Virus record (IMG/VR): IMGVR_UViG_2698536395_000002
DNA from: a virus
Taxonomy: Duplodnaviria > Heunggongvirae > Uroviricota > Caudoviricetes
DNA: 4,318 bases
Direction: 5' to 3' (one strand)
Shown here: one piece after another, positions 1 to 4,191 of the stretch
Layout of the letters: every line of letters begins with the position of its first letter
Position numbering within the stretch: position 1 is the stretch's first letter
Notes under the pieces: model-generated
The model's input: only the letters and a program-made list of their open reading frames with translations
What the model was told of the DNA's origin: nothing
Databases searched by the model: none
Translations under genes and position numbers: made by a program

Positions 1-101
1 AATACATTGAGATTTTCTACAATCGTCAGCGTCGTCACTCTCGTCTGGGGAATATCTCCCCGGCAGCCTTCAGGGAAAAATATCATCAGATGGCTGCTTA
101 A
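1..101 (+). CDS. IS3-family transposase (OrfB-type), 3' end only; the 5' part lies outside the window
   Basis: Frame 3 is open from the window edge to TAA at 99-101 and translates to YIEIFYNRQRRHSRLGNISPAAFREKYHQMAA. The YNRQRRHS-LG-ISPAAF pattern is the conserved C-terminal signature of IS3-family DDE transposases (recollection; exact IS not identified). Confidence 0.7.
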   Translation, partial: YIEIFYNRQRRHSRLGNISPAAFREKYHQMAA

Positions 102-139
102 AAAAAGAACAAATGGTAGCGTCCGCTATTGCCAGTACA
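1..139 (+). mobile_element. Right end of an IS3-family insertion sequence, inserted into the phage int gene
   Basis: Transposase 3' end at 1-101, followed by about 38 bp ending in ...CCAGTACA at 139 (IS3-family ends are 5'-TG...CA-3'). Int homology on the opposite strand stops at this point (around codon 77). The exact terminus is inferred, +/- a few bp. Confidence 0.65.
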
Positions 140-370
140 CCTCAGAGTGATTGCGTCACCGCCTTTAATTCTGTCTATCAGTGATTTGCGTCCGCTGTCT
201 GAGAGTAACTCAATATTGGCCTGTATTGCTTCAGTGATTGCTATCCTCCTGTCTCGGCCTAATCCAAACTCTTTACCCGTCCTTGGGTCCCTGTAGCAGT
301 AATATCCATTGTTTCTTATATAAAGGTTAGGGGGTAAATCCCGGCGCTCATGACTTCGCCTTCTTCCCAT
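98..370 (-). pseudogene. int: Integrase truncated by IS insertion: N-terminal arm-binding domain of a lambda/HK022-type tyrosine integrase (about 77 native codons) fused to 13 IS-derived codons
   Basis: ORF begins MGRRRSHERRDLPPNLYIRNNGYYCYRDPRTGKEFGLGRDRRIAITEAIQANIEL, which matches the lambda Int N-terminus as recalled. The next stretch, LSDSGRKSLIDRIKGGDAITL, resembles HK022-type Int. Homology is then lost (RCTGNSGRYHLFFF*) where the reading frame enters the IS end. Full-length Int is about 356 aa; this ORF is 90 aa. The 5' end overlaps xis by 23 bp, as in lambda. Confidence 0.9.
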
Positions 371-592: not shown

Positions 593-615
593 TAAAAAAC
601 CGCCATCAGGCGGCT
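591..615 (-). terminator. Intrinsic (rho-independent) terminator for leftward transcription, overlapping the stop codon of the orf55-like gene
   Basis: Minus-strand RNA would read GCCGCC-UGAU-GGCGG followed by UUUUUUAUU. Stem is at plus 600-604 / 609-613, loop 605-608 (contains the TGA stop), T-tract at 592-599. Confidence 0.6.
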
Positions 616-773
616 TGGTGTTCTTTCAGTTCTTCAATTCGAATATTGGTTACGTCTGCATGTGCTATCTGCGCCCATATCATCCAGTGGTCATAGCAGT
701 CGTTGATGTCCTCTGCTTCGATAACTCTGTTGAATGGTTCTCCATTCAATTCACCTGTGACTCGGAAGTGCAT
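606..773 (-). CDS. Small hypothetical protein, 55 aa; homologue of the lambda orf between xis and ea8.5 (orf55-like)
   Basis: ATG at 771-773; protein MHFRVTGELNGEPFNRVIEAEDINDCYDHWMIWAQIAHADVTNIRIEELKEHQAA. The six-frame track extends it to a TTG at 788, but the ATG start matches the lambda orf as recalled. Stop TGA sits in the terminator loop. Confidence 0.75.
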   Translation of the reverse strand: MHFRVTGELNGEPFNRVIEAEDINDCYDHWMIWAQIAHADVTNIRIEELKEHQAA

Positions 774-808: not shown

Positions 809-1108
809 TTATTCGATTCGCACACCTGGTATTTCGCCTTTTGAAATGGCTAAGTCATAAATTTGCGCAGCACTATACCCATCTCGCATCCATGAATCTA
901 AGGCGCGAATAGCCTCGCTACGCTTTTTATCTTCTCTTTCATTTTTGATATCAACGAGGACATCAACGCAATTAAGGCATATGTGGATTTTGTCCTTACA
1001 TTCGATCATGGCAGCTTTACCATGATTTCCGCCACACAGTGAGCATAAATCTTCAGGGTCTGGCTGGTATTTCTGTAACGTTAAAGGGTTGAATGTTGAA
1101 CAGGCCAT
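809..1108 (-). CDS. Hypothetical zinc-ribbon protein (about 99 aa) with CxxC-x11-C-x6-CxxC motif; function unknown
   Basis: ORF open from 1120; preferred start is the ATG at 1106-1108, preceded by GGAGATGATT (SD, 6-nt spacer). Cys pairs C22/C25 and C44/C47 plus C37/H42 (numbered from that start) suggest a treble-clef or zinc-ribbon fold. Stop TAA at 809-811. Confidence 0.7.
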   Translation of the reverse strand: MACSTFNPLTLQKYQPDPEDLCSLCGGNHGKAAMIECKDKIHICLNCVDVLVDIKNEREDKKRSEAIRALDSWMRDGYSAAQIYDLAISKGEIPGVRIE

Positions 1109-1120
1109 AATCATCTCCAT

Positions 1121-1145
1121 AAAACAAAACTCGCCGTAGCGAGTT
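1121..1145 (-). terminator. Putative intrinsic terminator (or antitermination-sensitive pause hairpin) in the leftward operon
   Basis: Minus-strand RNA: GAACUCGC-UACG-GCGAGUU followed by UUGUUUU. Stem plus 1128-1134 / 1139-1145, T-tract 1121-1127. It sits in a 120-bp non-coding gap downstream of the 92-aa gene. Confidence 0.5.
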
Positions 1146-1265
1146 CAGATAAAAGAAATCCCCGTCAGTGCGAGGATTGTTATTGTCTTTTCTTCGTGCA
1201 TTTGTCGCACTTTCGGCACCATCCAGATAGGCACATCCGTCCGCAATTAACACATATAGGCCACA

Positions 1266-1544
1266 TCATTTTTCCTCTTTTGGTTTATGAATCTGAATGG
1301 TCATGCCGCTTTGAGTGGTGACTACAATGACATAACCAGGCTGAAGACTGTTAAGATTGAATGCTTCGTAAAACGAATCCAAGGCCAGCGCTTTTTTATT
1401 CTTTCGGTTCCACCAACGCCATCCCTTGCTACAGGCTACACTGACAATCCACTGCCCACTCCTGTAAGCCATATAAAACCAGATGAGCAAAACCTGAAGG
1501 AATGCTATCCAGTCAATAATCGTATATTTCGCGAAGGAGTCCAT
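1266..1544 (-). CDS. Small predicted membrane protein (92 aa): one hydrophobic transmembrane-like segment followed by a basic Trp-rich patch
   Basis: ATG at 1542-1544 is preceded by AGGAGG (7-nt spacer) and overlaps the upstream TGA (TGATG). Hydrophobic stretch YTIIDWIAFLQVLLIWFYMAY, then KGWRWWNRKNKK. Stop TGA at 1266-1268. Confidence 0.7.
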   Translation of the reverse strand: MDSFAKYTIIDWIAFLQVLLIWFYMAYRSGQWIVSVACSKGWRWWNRKNKKALALDSFYEAFNLNSLQPGYVIVVTTQSGMTIQIHKPKEEK

Positions 1545-2131
1545 CACTTCACCTCCTGCTGCGGTGCTGCTGGCATTTCACGCCAGTGCGTAACTGAGTG
1601 CGGATCCGGATATTCGGTGCCATCATCCCAGCGATTGCCATTCCACATTGCAGACCACATCTCACCGTCTTCATACATGACCATTACCGGAATTAACTTA
1701 TCCGGCATTCGCTCACTACAGCATATCCAACCATCCGGAGTTACCGGAGAGTTGCCCGATAGCGCATTACGCAATCGCTCCAGCTTCACGTATTCCTGAA
1801 CCCTGTTTCCGTCGCATGCCTGAAGCCATTGCGCAGCCTTTTGCGCATCAGTGTGAAAGGCACAAGTGCGACCGTCATCAAATTGCATTTCGTAGAGGTC
1901 AGCAACTTGTTCAAACTGCGTATGTTGTGACTTGTAAGTTTGGCTTACAGGTTCGGCACCATGAAGCATGGCGGCGCGGAGTTTCTGTATCTCCCGTGCC
2001 ATTATTGCGGCCTGACGAGGAGTGAACATATCACCTGCAATAATTCTGTTTAGTTCCTCGTCAGTGAACTCATAATCATCAGGAACATTGTGAACCTCAG
2101 CATAAAGAGGCTTTTTTGTAGAAATGGTCAT
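1544..2131 (-). CDS. Phage protein with a C-terminal DUF551-like domain (195 aa)
   Basis: ATG at 2129-2131 overlaps the upstream stop (ATGA); GGAGG upstream. The C-terminus GWICCSERMPDKLIPVMVMYEDGEMWSAMWNGNRWDDGTEYPDPHSVTHWREMPAAP fits the DUF551 signature (W..P...V.V..........W.........THW.E.P, recollection). Confidence 0.8.
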   Translation of the reverse strand: MTISTKKPLYAEVHNVPDDYEFTDEELNRIIAGDMFTPRQAAIMAREIQKLRAAMLHGAEPVSQTYKSQHTQFEQVADLYEMQFDDGRTCAFHTDAQKAAQWLQACDGNRVQEYVKLERLRNALSGNSPVTPDGWICCSERMPDKLIPVMVMYEDGEMWSAMWNGNRWDDGTEYPDPHSVTHWREMPAAPQQEVK

Positions 2132-2938: not shown

Positions 2939-3607
2939 TCACTCTCCTTTGATGCGAATGCCAGTAGCGCGGATAGATTTCCATTGTTTCCACATTCGGT
3001 TGAAGTCTGTGCCTGATAAGGTTGCGTTACGGTATCCAGTTTCGGTACGCAATCCTTCAAGCGTCGATTTGGAGATACAAATTGAATGCATTACCCATGA
3101 TTCAAACAAATCACGCTCCCGGGCTTCGCAACTTTGCTTACTCATCTCTTCGATACGTTCAGCCATCGCAGCACACTCTTCAAAGTTGCTTAATGCTTTT
3201 CGCTCCCATTCGGCGCATTGTTTTCCAAGCTCTGCAATCAGCTTGTCTTTGCCTTCCAGCTCAACACGCAGTTTCCCTACCGTTAGCGCAATATCCTCGT
3301 TCTCCTGATCGCGGCGTTTGATGTATTGCTGGTTTCTTTCCAGTTCATCCAGTAATGCCAGCACAGTAGCCGGATTGGCTGCGGCGATGAATTCAGCATT
3401 GGCCTGCTGTTCCATTTGGAAATCTTCATCGAAACCGCTTTCTGGATGTGCTCCTTCAATTCTGCAAATGGGAAGATATCCAACAACTTCACGATGAATT
3501 AACGCATCATCACAATCAAATCGGCTCTCTCCATATTCGAGCGACCATACACCACACGTTGCTTTTTCTGCCTTGGCACGCAGTGCCTGATAGTCAATCA
3601 GGCTCAC
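2939..3607 (-). CDS. ea22: Ea22-like protein (222 aa), a mosaic variant with a conserved coiled-coil core
   Basis: GTG start at 3605-3607 preceded by AAAGGAGG and overlapping the upstream TGA (GTGA). N-terminus MSLIDYQALRAKAEKA..., core LLDELERNQQYIKRRDQENEDIALTVGKLRVELE and C-terminal IRIKGE* all match lambda Ea22 as recalled (which also starts at GTG). The segments between are divergent. Confidence 0.85.
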   Translation of the reverse strand: MSLIDYQALRAKAEKATCGVWSLEYGESRFDCDDALIHREVVGYLPICRIEGAHPESGFDEDFQMEQQANAEFIAAANPATVLALLDELERNQQYIKRRDQENEDIALTVGKLRVELEGKDKLIAELGKQCAEWERKALSNFEECAAMAERIEEMSKQSCEARERDLFESWVMHSICISKSTLEGLRTETGYRNATLSGTDFNRMWKQWKSIRATGIRIKGE

Positions 3608-4191
3608 TGGTTGCCTCCTTTGCGAATCTGTTCCGCCCATTCTTCAAGGGATTTCTCCGCATATTCACCAGACAGGCCATCAATCGGATGCGGTTCATTA
3701 GCCAACTCTTCTTTCGCTGACAGAATCATGCGCGTAACATCGAAAACTTCACGTAAAGACTTATTGATAAATCCGTGGTTGAAAGCAGCAGCAAGACGGC
3801 TTGCGGCATAGTTAATACCCTCGTTGCGTGCTTCCGCACGTACTTCAGCCAGGAAAGCATCGGTGGCTGGGGTTTTGATTTCGTTAAGCGCATCACTGAA
3901 TAAACCACGCTCCATACCTAGCTCTGCTTCGTAATCGGCATCGAATGCAGCGTCTTTGCAGAACTTCTTCATCCCCGCACTCTCCGCTGCCAGCGCCGCG
4001 CACTTGGCCTCAAGGTTATCAATCGTGATTCCAGCAGAACGACACTCCCGCAACGCCGTTTCCAGTTTTGATTCAAGTTCACCGAACTTACGGACAAGAT
4101 ATTCAGCGTTTGTTTCGTTAACCTTTAGATCTCGTGGGATGCATTTACCTTTCAGAAAACCATCCATCTCAATTAGTGACATTTGTTTCAT
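3604..4191 (-). CDS. Hypothetical protein (about 195 aa), largely alpha-helical by composition, no recognisable domain
   Basis: ORF open to a GTG at 4209; preferred start is ATG at 4189-4191 (GGAG/GGGA upstream), giving MKQMSLIEMDGFLKGK.... Stop TGA at 3604-3606 overlaps the Ea22-like GTG start. Start codon choice is uncertain. Confidence 0.7.
   Translation of the reverse strand: MKQMSLIEMDGFLKGKCIPRDLKVNETNAEYLVRKFGELESKLETALRECRSAGITIDNLEAKCAALAAESAGMKKFCKDAAFDADYEAELGMERGLFSDALNEIKTPATDAFLAEVRAEARNEGINYAASRLAAAFNHGFINKSLREVFDVTRMILSAKEELANEPHPIDGLSGEYAEKSLEEWAEQIRKGGNQ

Follow-up and report, generated by a model that had tools for sequence, protein, structure and literature searches.

A DUF4752 family gene in the distal early-left operon of a Stx1a-converting prophage encodes a predicted single-pass membrane protein

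The window analyzed here, a stretch of 4318 bases, matches Stx1a-converting prophages of E. coli O26:H11 at 100% identity, for example those in LC744179.1 and in the chromosome of strain FWSEC0001, and that of strain H19 from base 144 onward. All of its genes are read on the minus strand. Followed downstream from the repressor side, the annotated order in H19 is kil, erf, the anti-RecBCD gene, DUF2737 and Ea22-like genes, and then hypothetical genes, a DUF551 gene, the DUF4752 gene that is our subject, two small hypothetical genes, xis and int. The window covers the distal stretch of this lambdoid early-left (pL) operon next to xis and int, known as 'exo-xis' or 'ea', the same region and operon as ea22, ea8.5, orf60a, orf61, orf63 and orf73 of lambda and the Stx phages. 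An IS600 element disrupts int in the window. The neighbors of the DUF4752 gene encode Ea22-like and DUF551 proteins, together with an ORF showing a weak ClpX-type zinc-finger match, and in the H19 prophage the same operon has kil 4.4 kb further upstream.

The gene itself is a 92-codon ORF at positions 1266–1544 of the minus strand, with its ATG at 1544–1542 and a TGA stop at 1268–1266; its translation is exactly the one quoted in a first-pass annotation of this DNA. In RefSeq, an ORF of the same length at the matching position of H19 is annotated as WP_000376716.1, 'DUF4752 family protein'. The ORF is absent from the annotation of the 1999 H19J record because, compared with the window, that record has two single-base insertions. 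Family membership was clear from two profile libraries. Pfam DUF4752 (PF15944) matched with an E-value of 1.4e-35 and 121.7 bits (gathering cut-off 27 bits), aligning residues 8–91 to positions 2–84 of the 84-position profile, and PHROG 667, whose category is 'unknown function', matched residues 1–92 to profile positions 1–91 of 94 (E 7.6e-38). All 35 aligned relatives also match DUF4752. A length of 92 residues is typical of the family (about 84–94), and the window protein has the family columns W32, A54, Y59, A61, F62, G70, T77 and I83; at position 71 it has tyrosine, where most close alleles have serine. The protein is a member of an already catalogued and annotated family, so that the first-pass annotation rediscovered a known DUF and added a topology prediction to it.

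A profile search placed the size of the family at 421 clusters at 90% identity. The named clusters derive from Escherichia, Salmonella, Klebsiella, Citrobacter, Enterobacter, Serratia, Erwinia, Hafnia and Cronobacter, and family matches with a named source belong to Enterobacterales without exception. DUF4752 is confined to temperate phages and prophages of this order. Carriers include Stx1- and Stx2-converting phages, P22-like, epsilon15-like and P1-like phages, and prophages of Klebsiella, Salmonella, Serratia and Hafnia, and so span several morphotypes. The gene region was found in 549 of 5426 complete E. coli genomes (~10%), with up to three copies per genome, while lambda was absent among the tblastn matches listed (60 of 69 records). 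An exhaustive HMMER scan of 1.84 billion representatives returned 33 proteins, the convincing ones being DUF4752 members throughout, with no other credible relatives. Four long matches in multiple stretches (P0050, P0052, P0055 and P0067) were discarded as artefacts, P0050 being an ankyrin-repeat and P0067 a tandem-repeat protein.

Selection on the gene was assessed across 75 related loci, 74 from IMG/VR plus the window, which comprise 52 distinct nucleotide alleles. Mean pS among these alleles was 0.139 and mean pN 0.0089 (pN/pS 0.064), and variable sites fell at codon positions 1, 2 and 3 in the proportion 15/11/35. Because of this low ratio and the third-position excess of variation, the DUF4752 ORF is a real gene under strong purifying selection. 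Its C-terminal cytoplasmic part gave a pN of 0.009 against a pS of 0.18. A 170-codon ORF overlapping it on the plus strand (1287–1799) was rejected, as codon-position variation fits the minus-strand frame instead. Disrupted copies nevertheless circulate. A run of six adenines at codons K50–K51 (1392–1397, minus strand) is the point directly after which several shortened variants lose frame: in variants P0023 and P0026 the first difference from the reference is at residue 52, where P0025 likewise goes out of frame. Some clusters of shortened variants contain 9–10 member sequences. Frameshifted copies, seen as two-piece matches, occur in the deposited Stx2 phages 86, phi315 and phi296 and also in many prophages, from which we infer that the gene is dispensable.

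The upstream DUF551 gene (1544–2131, minus strand) is joined to the DUF4752 gene by a TGATG stop-start overlap at 1542–1546 of the minus strand, in which its TGA shares one base with the DUF4752 ATG. A Shine-Dalgarno sequence, AGGAGG (1552–1557, minus strand), lies 7 nt before this ATG, inside the last codons of the DUF551 gene. It had been singled out as the strongest ribosome-binding site of the window; it is present, but not unique, as a second AGGAGG on the same strand (3614–3619) stands 7 nt before a GTG at 3606. The latter is probably the true start of the Ea22-like gene, and the Pfam match of the longer Ea22-like ORF begins at residue 13. The TGATG arrangement of the DUF4752 start implies that its translation would be coupled to that of the DUF551 gene. 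Either TGATG or TAATG was present in 30 of 30 upstream junction variants, again preceded by AGGAG(G/A). Among the 75 loci, window included, the junction GCAGGAGGTGAAGTGATG or a near variant was retained behind at least five unrelated upstream sequences. With at least five complete changes of upstream sequence and the junction kept, the junction is a mosaic boundary and the ATG at 1544 the conserved start. An alternative GTG start at 1547 was excluded, since junction variants reading GTAATG retain only the ATG.

Neighboring genes vary on both sides. Upstream and downstream neighbors are exchanged among close relatives (75 loci), the upstream one being most often one of many different DUF551-type genes. 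Distant phages showed no conserved neighbor gene and no DUF551 neighbor. A conserved partner gene was accordingly rejected, as distant members are without the DUF551-type neighbor that most close relatives have. SPN1S and Klebsiella phage Chronis carry the gene in the early-right region, behind the replication genes, with a start that overlaps the preceding gene; P1-like phage D6 carries it among Ea22-like genes. The gene that follows overlaps the DUF4752 end in both SPN1S and D6. A simple sigma-70 consensus scan of the window found no promoter-like site upstream of the DUF4752 gene, although such a scan could miss a weak internal promoter and leaves room for low expression in the lysogen. On the basis of the coupled starts, the lack of a promoter and the variable neighbors, the protein appears to be produced only once the early operons are derepressed, and to need no dedicated phage partner.

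Downstream of the gene, on the same strand, are two terminator-like hairpins with U-tracts. The first (1157–1178, minus strand) has an 8 bp stem and a 6 nt loop followed by UUUCUUUUAU, and its stem is kept in related loci despite changes in the loop. The second (1127–1146, minus strand), with an 8 bp stem and a 4 nt loop, leads into UUUUGUUUUAU; the next ORF (809–1120) starts immediately beyond. Folded jointly, the two gave −22.9 kcal/mol (z = −4.05 against shuffles). The first-pass annotation had the DUF4752 gene as the last one before a terminator. The hairpins bear out the terminator, but a cysteine-rich micro-ORF of 28 codons, MWPICVNCGRMCLSGWCRKCDKCTKKRQ (1180–1266, minus strand), probably intervenes. 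Its ATG overlaps the DUF4752 stop, again as TGATG, and it ends one base before the first hairpin. Most likely it is this micro-ORF that directly precedes the terminators, which would make the DUF4752 gene the penultimate one.

Annotation of the micro-ORF is lacking in the records compared: its interval is empty in RefSeq H19, and in mEp213 and Dewey the ORFs annotated there have other coordinates, leaving the micro-ORF uncalled. It also had no family match in Pfam, PHROG or NCBIfam. By tblastn, micro-ORF peptides 64–77% identical to it were found in siphophages of other genera (Deseoctovirus C1, Skatevirus KFS-SE2 and ST1UNAM). There the micro-ORF is intact, with synonymous substitutions, starts 1–2 bases after the stop codon of the upstream gene, and comes last in a small operon with a strong terminator directly after it. 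Searching with a degenerate DNA pattern located the micro-ORF in 77 IMG/VR contigs; across all loci compared it has 21 distinct peptides of 24–38 residues (most 24–28). C17 and C20 are kept in nearly all 21, and the WCxKCDK part in most; none of these positions is forced by the search pattern. Which gene follows tracks the end of the DUF4752 allele. Alleles ending in ...EEK are followed by the micro-ORF (39 of 75 loci), whereas after those ending in ...EEGRG the next feature is not a terminator but an ASCH-like gene, starting with a GTG that overlaps the DUF4752 end (36 of 75). A conserved, unannotated cysteine-rich micro-ORF placed on the DUF4752 stop codon is the most noteworthy by-product of this analysis.

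The hydrophobic segment of about 20 residues that had drawn attention to the protein is a transmembrane helix by prediction. It comprises residues 8–27, TIIDWIAFLQVLLIWFYMAY (1464–1523, minus strand). The 19-residue Kyte-Doolittle mean of this segment is 1.78 and its Wimley-White octanol energy sums to about −12 to −13 kcal/mol, values usual for helices that span a membrane, and AlphaFold2 modeled it as helix with pLDDT 85–91. The N-terminal segment is hydrophobic in all 35 aligned members, down to about 23–25% identity. In the large Salmonella/Klebsiella subfamily it is weaker (Kyte-Doolittle 1.2–1.6) and includes N and G residues, and membrane insertion is less certain there. A signal peptide was ruled out, as the segment lacks a basic n-region and its hydrophobic core gives way to a dense basic cluster. 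Lysine and arginine number 0–1 before the helix and 4–10 in the 25 residues after it in 35 of 35 members, with one before and seven after in the window protein. Because this bias toward the C-terminal side is family-wide, the positive-inside rule by itself predicts a single-pass (bitopic) inner-membrane protein oriented N-out/C-in. Predicted exposure to the periplasm amounts to 2–7 residues, with roughly 65 other residues in the cytoplasm. The description of a small single-pass membrane protein in an early phage operon thus holds, helix and charge asymmetry being kept to about 25% identity.

Codons 28–51 (1392–1463, minus strand) form a predicted cytoplasmic juxtamembrane helix that includes a (K/R)xGxW motif, a short amphipathic and hydrophobic stretch (WIVSVACS) and, at residues 40–51, the aromatic and basic patch KGWRWWNRKNKK. 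It contains seven K/R and no D/E, and the hydrophobic moment peaks at 0.49 around residues 37–55. The patch had been described as basic, Trp-rich and juxtamembrane. It is present, but 12 residues, RSGQWIVSVACS, which include the nearly invariant W32, separate it from the transmembrane helix, and WRWW occurs only in the close subfamily. Where the window subfamily reads GWRWWNRK, the distant and larger Salmonella/Klebsiella subfamily reads QWDKRRK, within QWDKRRKxSRRQK. To judge from this larger subfamily, the conserved property of the patch is its basic character and not tryptophan richness.

The remaining codons, 52–92 (1269–1391, minus strand), encode a small C-terminal domain. AlphaFold2 was run twice, with alignments of 35 and 108 sequences, and both runs gave a helix at 9–46 (pLDDT 80–91 over residues 11–40), a second helix at about 50–61, and strands at 72–76 and 82–86 that form a β-hairpin after a loop at G70. 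What had been called a β-rich tail is in these models one helix plus a hairpin, so the hairpin part of that description survives at low confidence: pLDDT for the C-terminal part was 56–66, with no gain from 108 sequences (58–66), and the fold is uncertain. Low values of this kind could reflect a domain that needs an oligomer or a partner in order to fold. The conserved positions cluster on the cytoplasmic side (W32, A54, Y59, A61, F62, L64, G70, T77, I83 and R87). Across 108 sequences G70 is invariant, A54, Y59, A61, F62 (together AxxxxYxAF) and L64 are conserved in the C-terminal helix, and T77 and I83 in the hairpin.

Searches for a function returned little beyond the family itself. Pfam scans of 35 members at E-values up to 10 gave nothing significant other than DUF4752. 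HemY_N (13 of 35 members, best E 0.0095) and the weak, recurrent Chalcone and PglL_A matches were rejected as compositional and below threshold. NCBIfam had no match for the protein. A PDB sequence search with the family profile gave one chance match (E 2.1), a PDB fold search was uninformative, and Foldseek against the BFVD viral structures recovered only fragments or members of the same family. No paper was found on DUF4752, PF15944, WP_000376716.1 or phrog_667. Likewise, the gene is not mentioned in the sections consulted of the exo-xis literature on ea22, ea8.5, orf60a, orf61, orf63 and orf73, nor in those of one accessory-gene screen.

Taken together, we consider there to be an even chance that the DUF4752 protein is a membrane-anchored, early, host-modulating protein, which is the best explanation at hand. 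As the distal gene of an N-antiterminated pL operon, it would be expressed only in early lytic growth or after induction, and translated by coupling to the upstream DUF551 gene. Its helix would insert N-out/C-in and serve as an anchor, while the aromatic, basic interfacial helix seems suited to lie on the anionic inner leaflet. The conserved domain of ~40 residues (helix plus β-hairpin), which carries most of the invariant residues, would be cytoplasmic. More tentatively, the anchor could concentrate this domain at the cytoplasmic face of the inner membrane, where it might bind a membrane-associated, Enterobacterales-specific host component. A host-specific target is suggested by the restriction of the family to Enterobacterales, and candidates include the division, elongation, transport or proteolysis machinery. 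The protein would thus act as a dispensable, host-modulating accessory factor rather than as a prophage-expressed exclusion protein or a pore-former.

One specific version of this explanation is a Kil-like inhibitor, in which the tethered domain would block division or elongation early in infection by binding a membrane-proximal cytoskeletal or divisome protein. We regard it as rather unlikely in this specific form. The gene shares the pL operon with kil and other host-directed accessory genes, and prediction places its conserved domain in the cytoplasm. Lambda Kil, Rac KilR and Qin DicB are also small, dispensable, host-acting products of pL-type early regions. Known lambdoid division inhibitors are, however, soluble proteins. 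Kil, KilR and DicB are unrelated in sequence to the DUF4752 protein, with no family match, and Pfam and PHROG scans showed no similarity to Kil, DicB or CbtA. [quoted passage not shown]

Superinfection exclusion, whereby an inner-membrane protein of the lysogen or infected cell would block DNA entry of related phages, perhaps via an entry factor, strikes us as improbable. A single-pass inner-membrane protein of temperate phages would suit such a role, and carriage by phages of several morphotypes agrees with an activity directed against other phages. HK97 gp15 and E. coli YebO-like single-pass proteins offer a likeness from the temperate coliphage setting, being similarly small with an N-terminal helix and a cytoplasmic remainder. 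Gp15, itself single-pass, reportedly excludes superinfecting phages via an inner-membrane entry factor. It is a late-region moron expressed from the prophage, unlike the DUF4752 gene, which is a coupled gene in a repressed early operon, and Pfam and PHROG scans showed no sequence similarity between the two proteins. Elsewhere, too, the early-right position after replication genes is not one of the immunity or moron positions. Among defense-related searches, PADLOC-DB 2.0 models gave no match at E-values up to 1. SieB (PF14163) appeared in 3 of 35 relatives (best E 0.16) and not in the window protein, a match far below significance that we rejected as compositional. What speaks against classical prophage-expressed exclusion is that the gene apparently lacks its own promoter, that its start is coupled to the preceding gene within a repressed operon, and that the predicted orientation is cytoplasmic, with almost nothing exposed to the periplasm.

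It is very unlikely, in our estimate, that the protein is a non-specific membrane-perturbing or holin-like peptide whose helix and Trp/Arg patch depolarize or permeabilize the inner membrane. In many peptides, a Trp/Arg-rich amphipathic stretch that adjoins a hydrophobic helix acts on membranes, and frameshift variants that keep only the helix and the basic patch persist in databases. WRWW is not conserved family-wide, however, and the gene lies in the early-left operon by xis and int, not in a lysis cassette, with no Pfam match to holin families. The evidence leans against this reading, as the strongest conservation and purifying selection fall on residues of the cytoplasmic C-terminal domain.

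The weakest proposal is an AbrB/MazE-related swapped-hairpin module, in which the C-terminal helix, PG turn and hairpin would form a membrane-held dimer that binds DNA or a host protein; a by-eye motif, (F/L)Y(D/E)AFxLxx(I/L)xPGxxVxxxTxxGxxIxI, resembles the second half of AbrB/MazE (SpoVT) domains, hhalign puts the PG-hairpin segment in the expected register and the adjacent basic stretch could contact nucleic acid, but the hhalign probability was 5.5% over 16 columns against a hand-typed alignment, no SpoVT/AbrB Pfam match appeared at E-values up to 10, only one hairpin is predicted where two are required (the first being absent), and PDB and BFVD searches gave no fold match, which leaves it a most improbable reading. 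Equally speculative, and at best a slim prospect, is a new class of early phage effector in which the single-pass anchor and basic interfacial helix would hold a dimerizing, half-AbrB-like helix-hairpin domain on the cytoplasmic side of the membrane, to sequester or tether an Enterobacterales-specific host factor or DNA, perhaps together with the coupled micro-protein MWPICxxCGRMCxxxWCxKCDK in about half of close relatives.

The favored explanation, a membrane-anchored and early-expressed host modulator, bears on a region with recognized effects on phage development. Several reports describe the exo-xis region as modulating lysogenization and induction (PMC3824215, PMC7093339, PMC10789677). 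The target of the DUF4752 protein, if found, would be one more host process manipulated from the exo-xis or 'ea' accessory region, which influences lysogeny and the induction of Shiga-toxin phages.

An unannotated, Cys-rich micro-ORF of 28 codons (MWPICVNCGRMCLSGWCRKCDKCTKKRQ) was found at the end of the DUF4752 gene (window 1180-1266, minus strand). Its start overlaps the DUF4752 stop codon, and it ends 1 nt short of the first terminator hairpin. Several phage contexts, among them Deseoctovirus C1 and Skatevirus KFS-SE2, hold related peptides; the 21 variants, mostly of 24-28 residues, have the consensus MWPICxxCGRMCxxxWCxKCDK. Searches of these peptides against Pfam, PHROG and NCBIfam returned no family match. 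The product may be a zinc-binding micro-protein.

Zinc-finger matches were seen in neighboring genes. The 103-residue ORF that follows the terminators (window 809-1120, minus strand; PHROG 3680) gave a weak match to the ClpX-type C4 zinc finger (E 0.0025) and ends in ...IYDLAISKGEIPGVRIE. The proteins preceding the micro-ORF in C1 (L088 921-1499), KFS-SE2 (L089 894-1499) and the siphophage ST1UNAM (L090 849-1499) carry this same C-terminal motif, ending in ...IYEAIAAGKIPGVKLED, and are otherwise different. In the P1-like phage D6, the gene directly upstream of DUF4752 (L004 3538-3858) encodes a clear zf-C4_ClpX domain (E 3e-17).

The upstream edge of the DUF4752 gene is marked by a conserved junction, GCAGGAGGTGAAGTGATG (window 1544-1560, minus strand, and loci L006-L085), comprising the last ~6 codons of the upstream gene (...QEVK*) and the Shine-Dalgarno sequence. 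Behind it stand at least five unrelated upstream sequences. Mosaic recombination boundaries have been described for the lambdoid 'ea' and 'nin' regions, and the junction looks like one of these.

In the databases, several truncated forms of DUF4752 go out of frame immediately past an A6 run at codons K50-K51 (window 1392-1397, minus strand). These retain the helix and basic patch and acquire a new tail; some form clusters with 9-10 member sequences. They may be pseudogenes, slippage variants or sequencing errors. Relative to window 1260-1560, the 1999 record of phage H19J (L002, AJ236875.1) contains two single-base insertions within or adjoining the DUF4752 gene, and the ORF is unannotated in that record because of them.

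The start of the Ea22-like gene (window 3604-3640, minus strand) probably differs from that listed. The 233-codon ORF is listed from an ATG at 3640, whereas the true start is probably the GTG at 3606: AGGAGG stands 7 nt in front of this GTG, which shares bases with the TGA stop of the preceding gene (GTGA). In the longer, 233-codon ORF, the Pfam Ead_Ea22 match does not start until residue 13.

A strong terminator-like hairpin (window 597-616, minus strand; 8 bp with five GC pairs, then a T-run) is positioned between a 60-codon ORF (606-788, PHROG 676) and xis. Early-left transcription therefore has at least three terminator-like sites to cross before xis and int. The lambda-type integrase gene is itself interrupted past its arm-binding domain by an end of the IS3-family element IS600, the two features together being placed at window 1-143 and 98-370 (minus strand); IS-free strains match the window only from base 144 on. 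With its integrase cut by IS600, the prophage of the source strain may therefore have lost the ability to excise.
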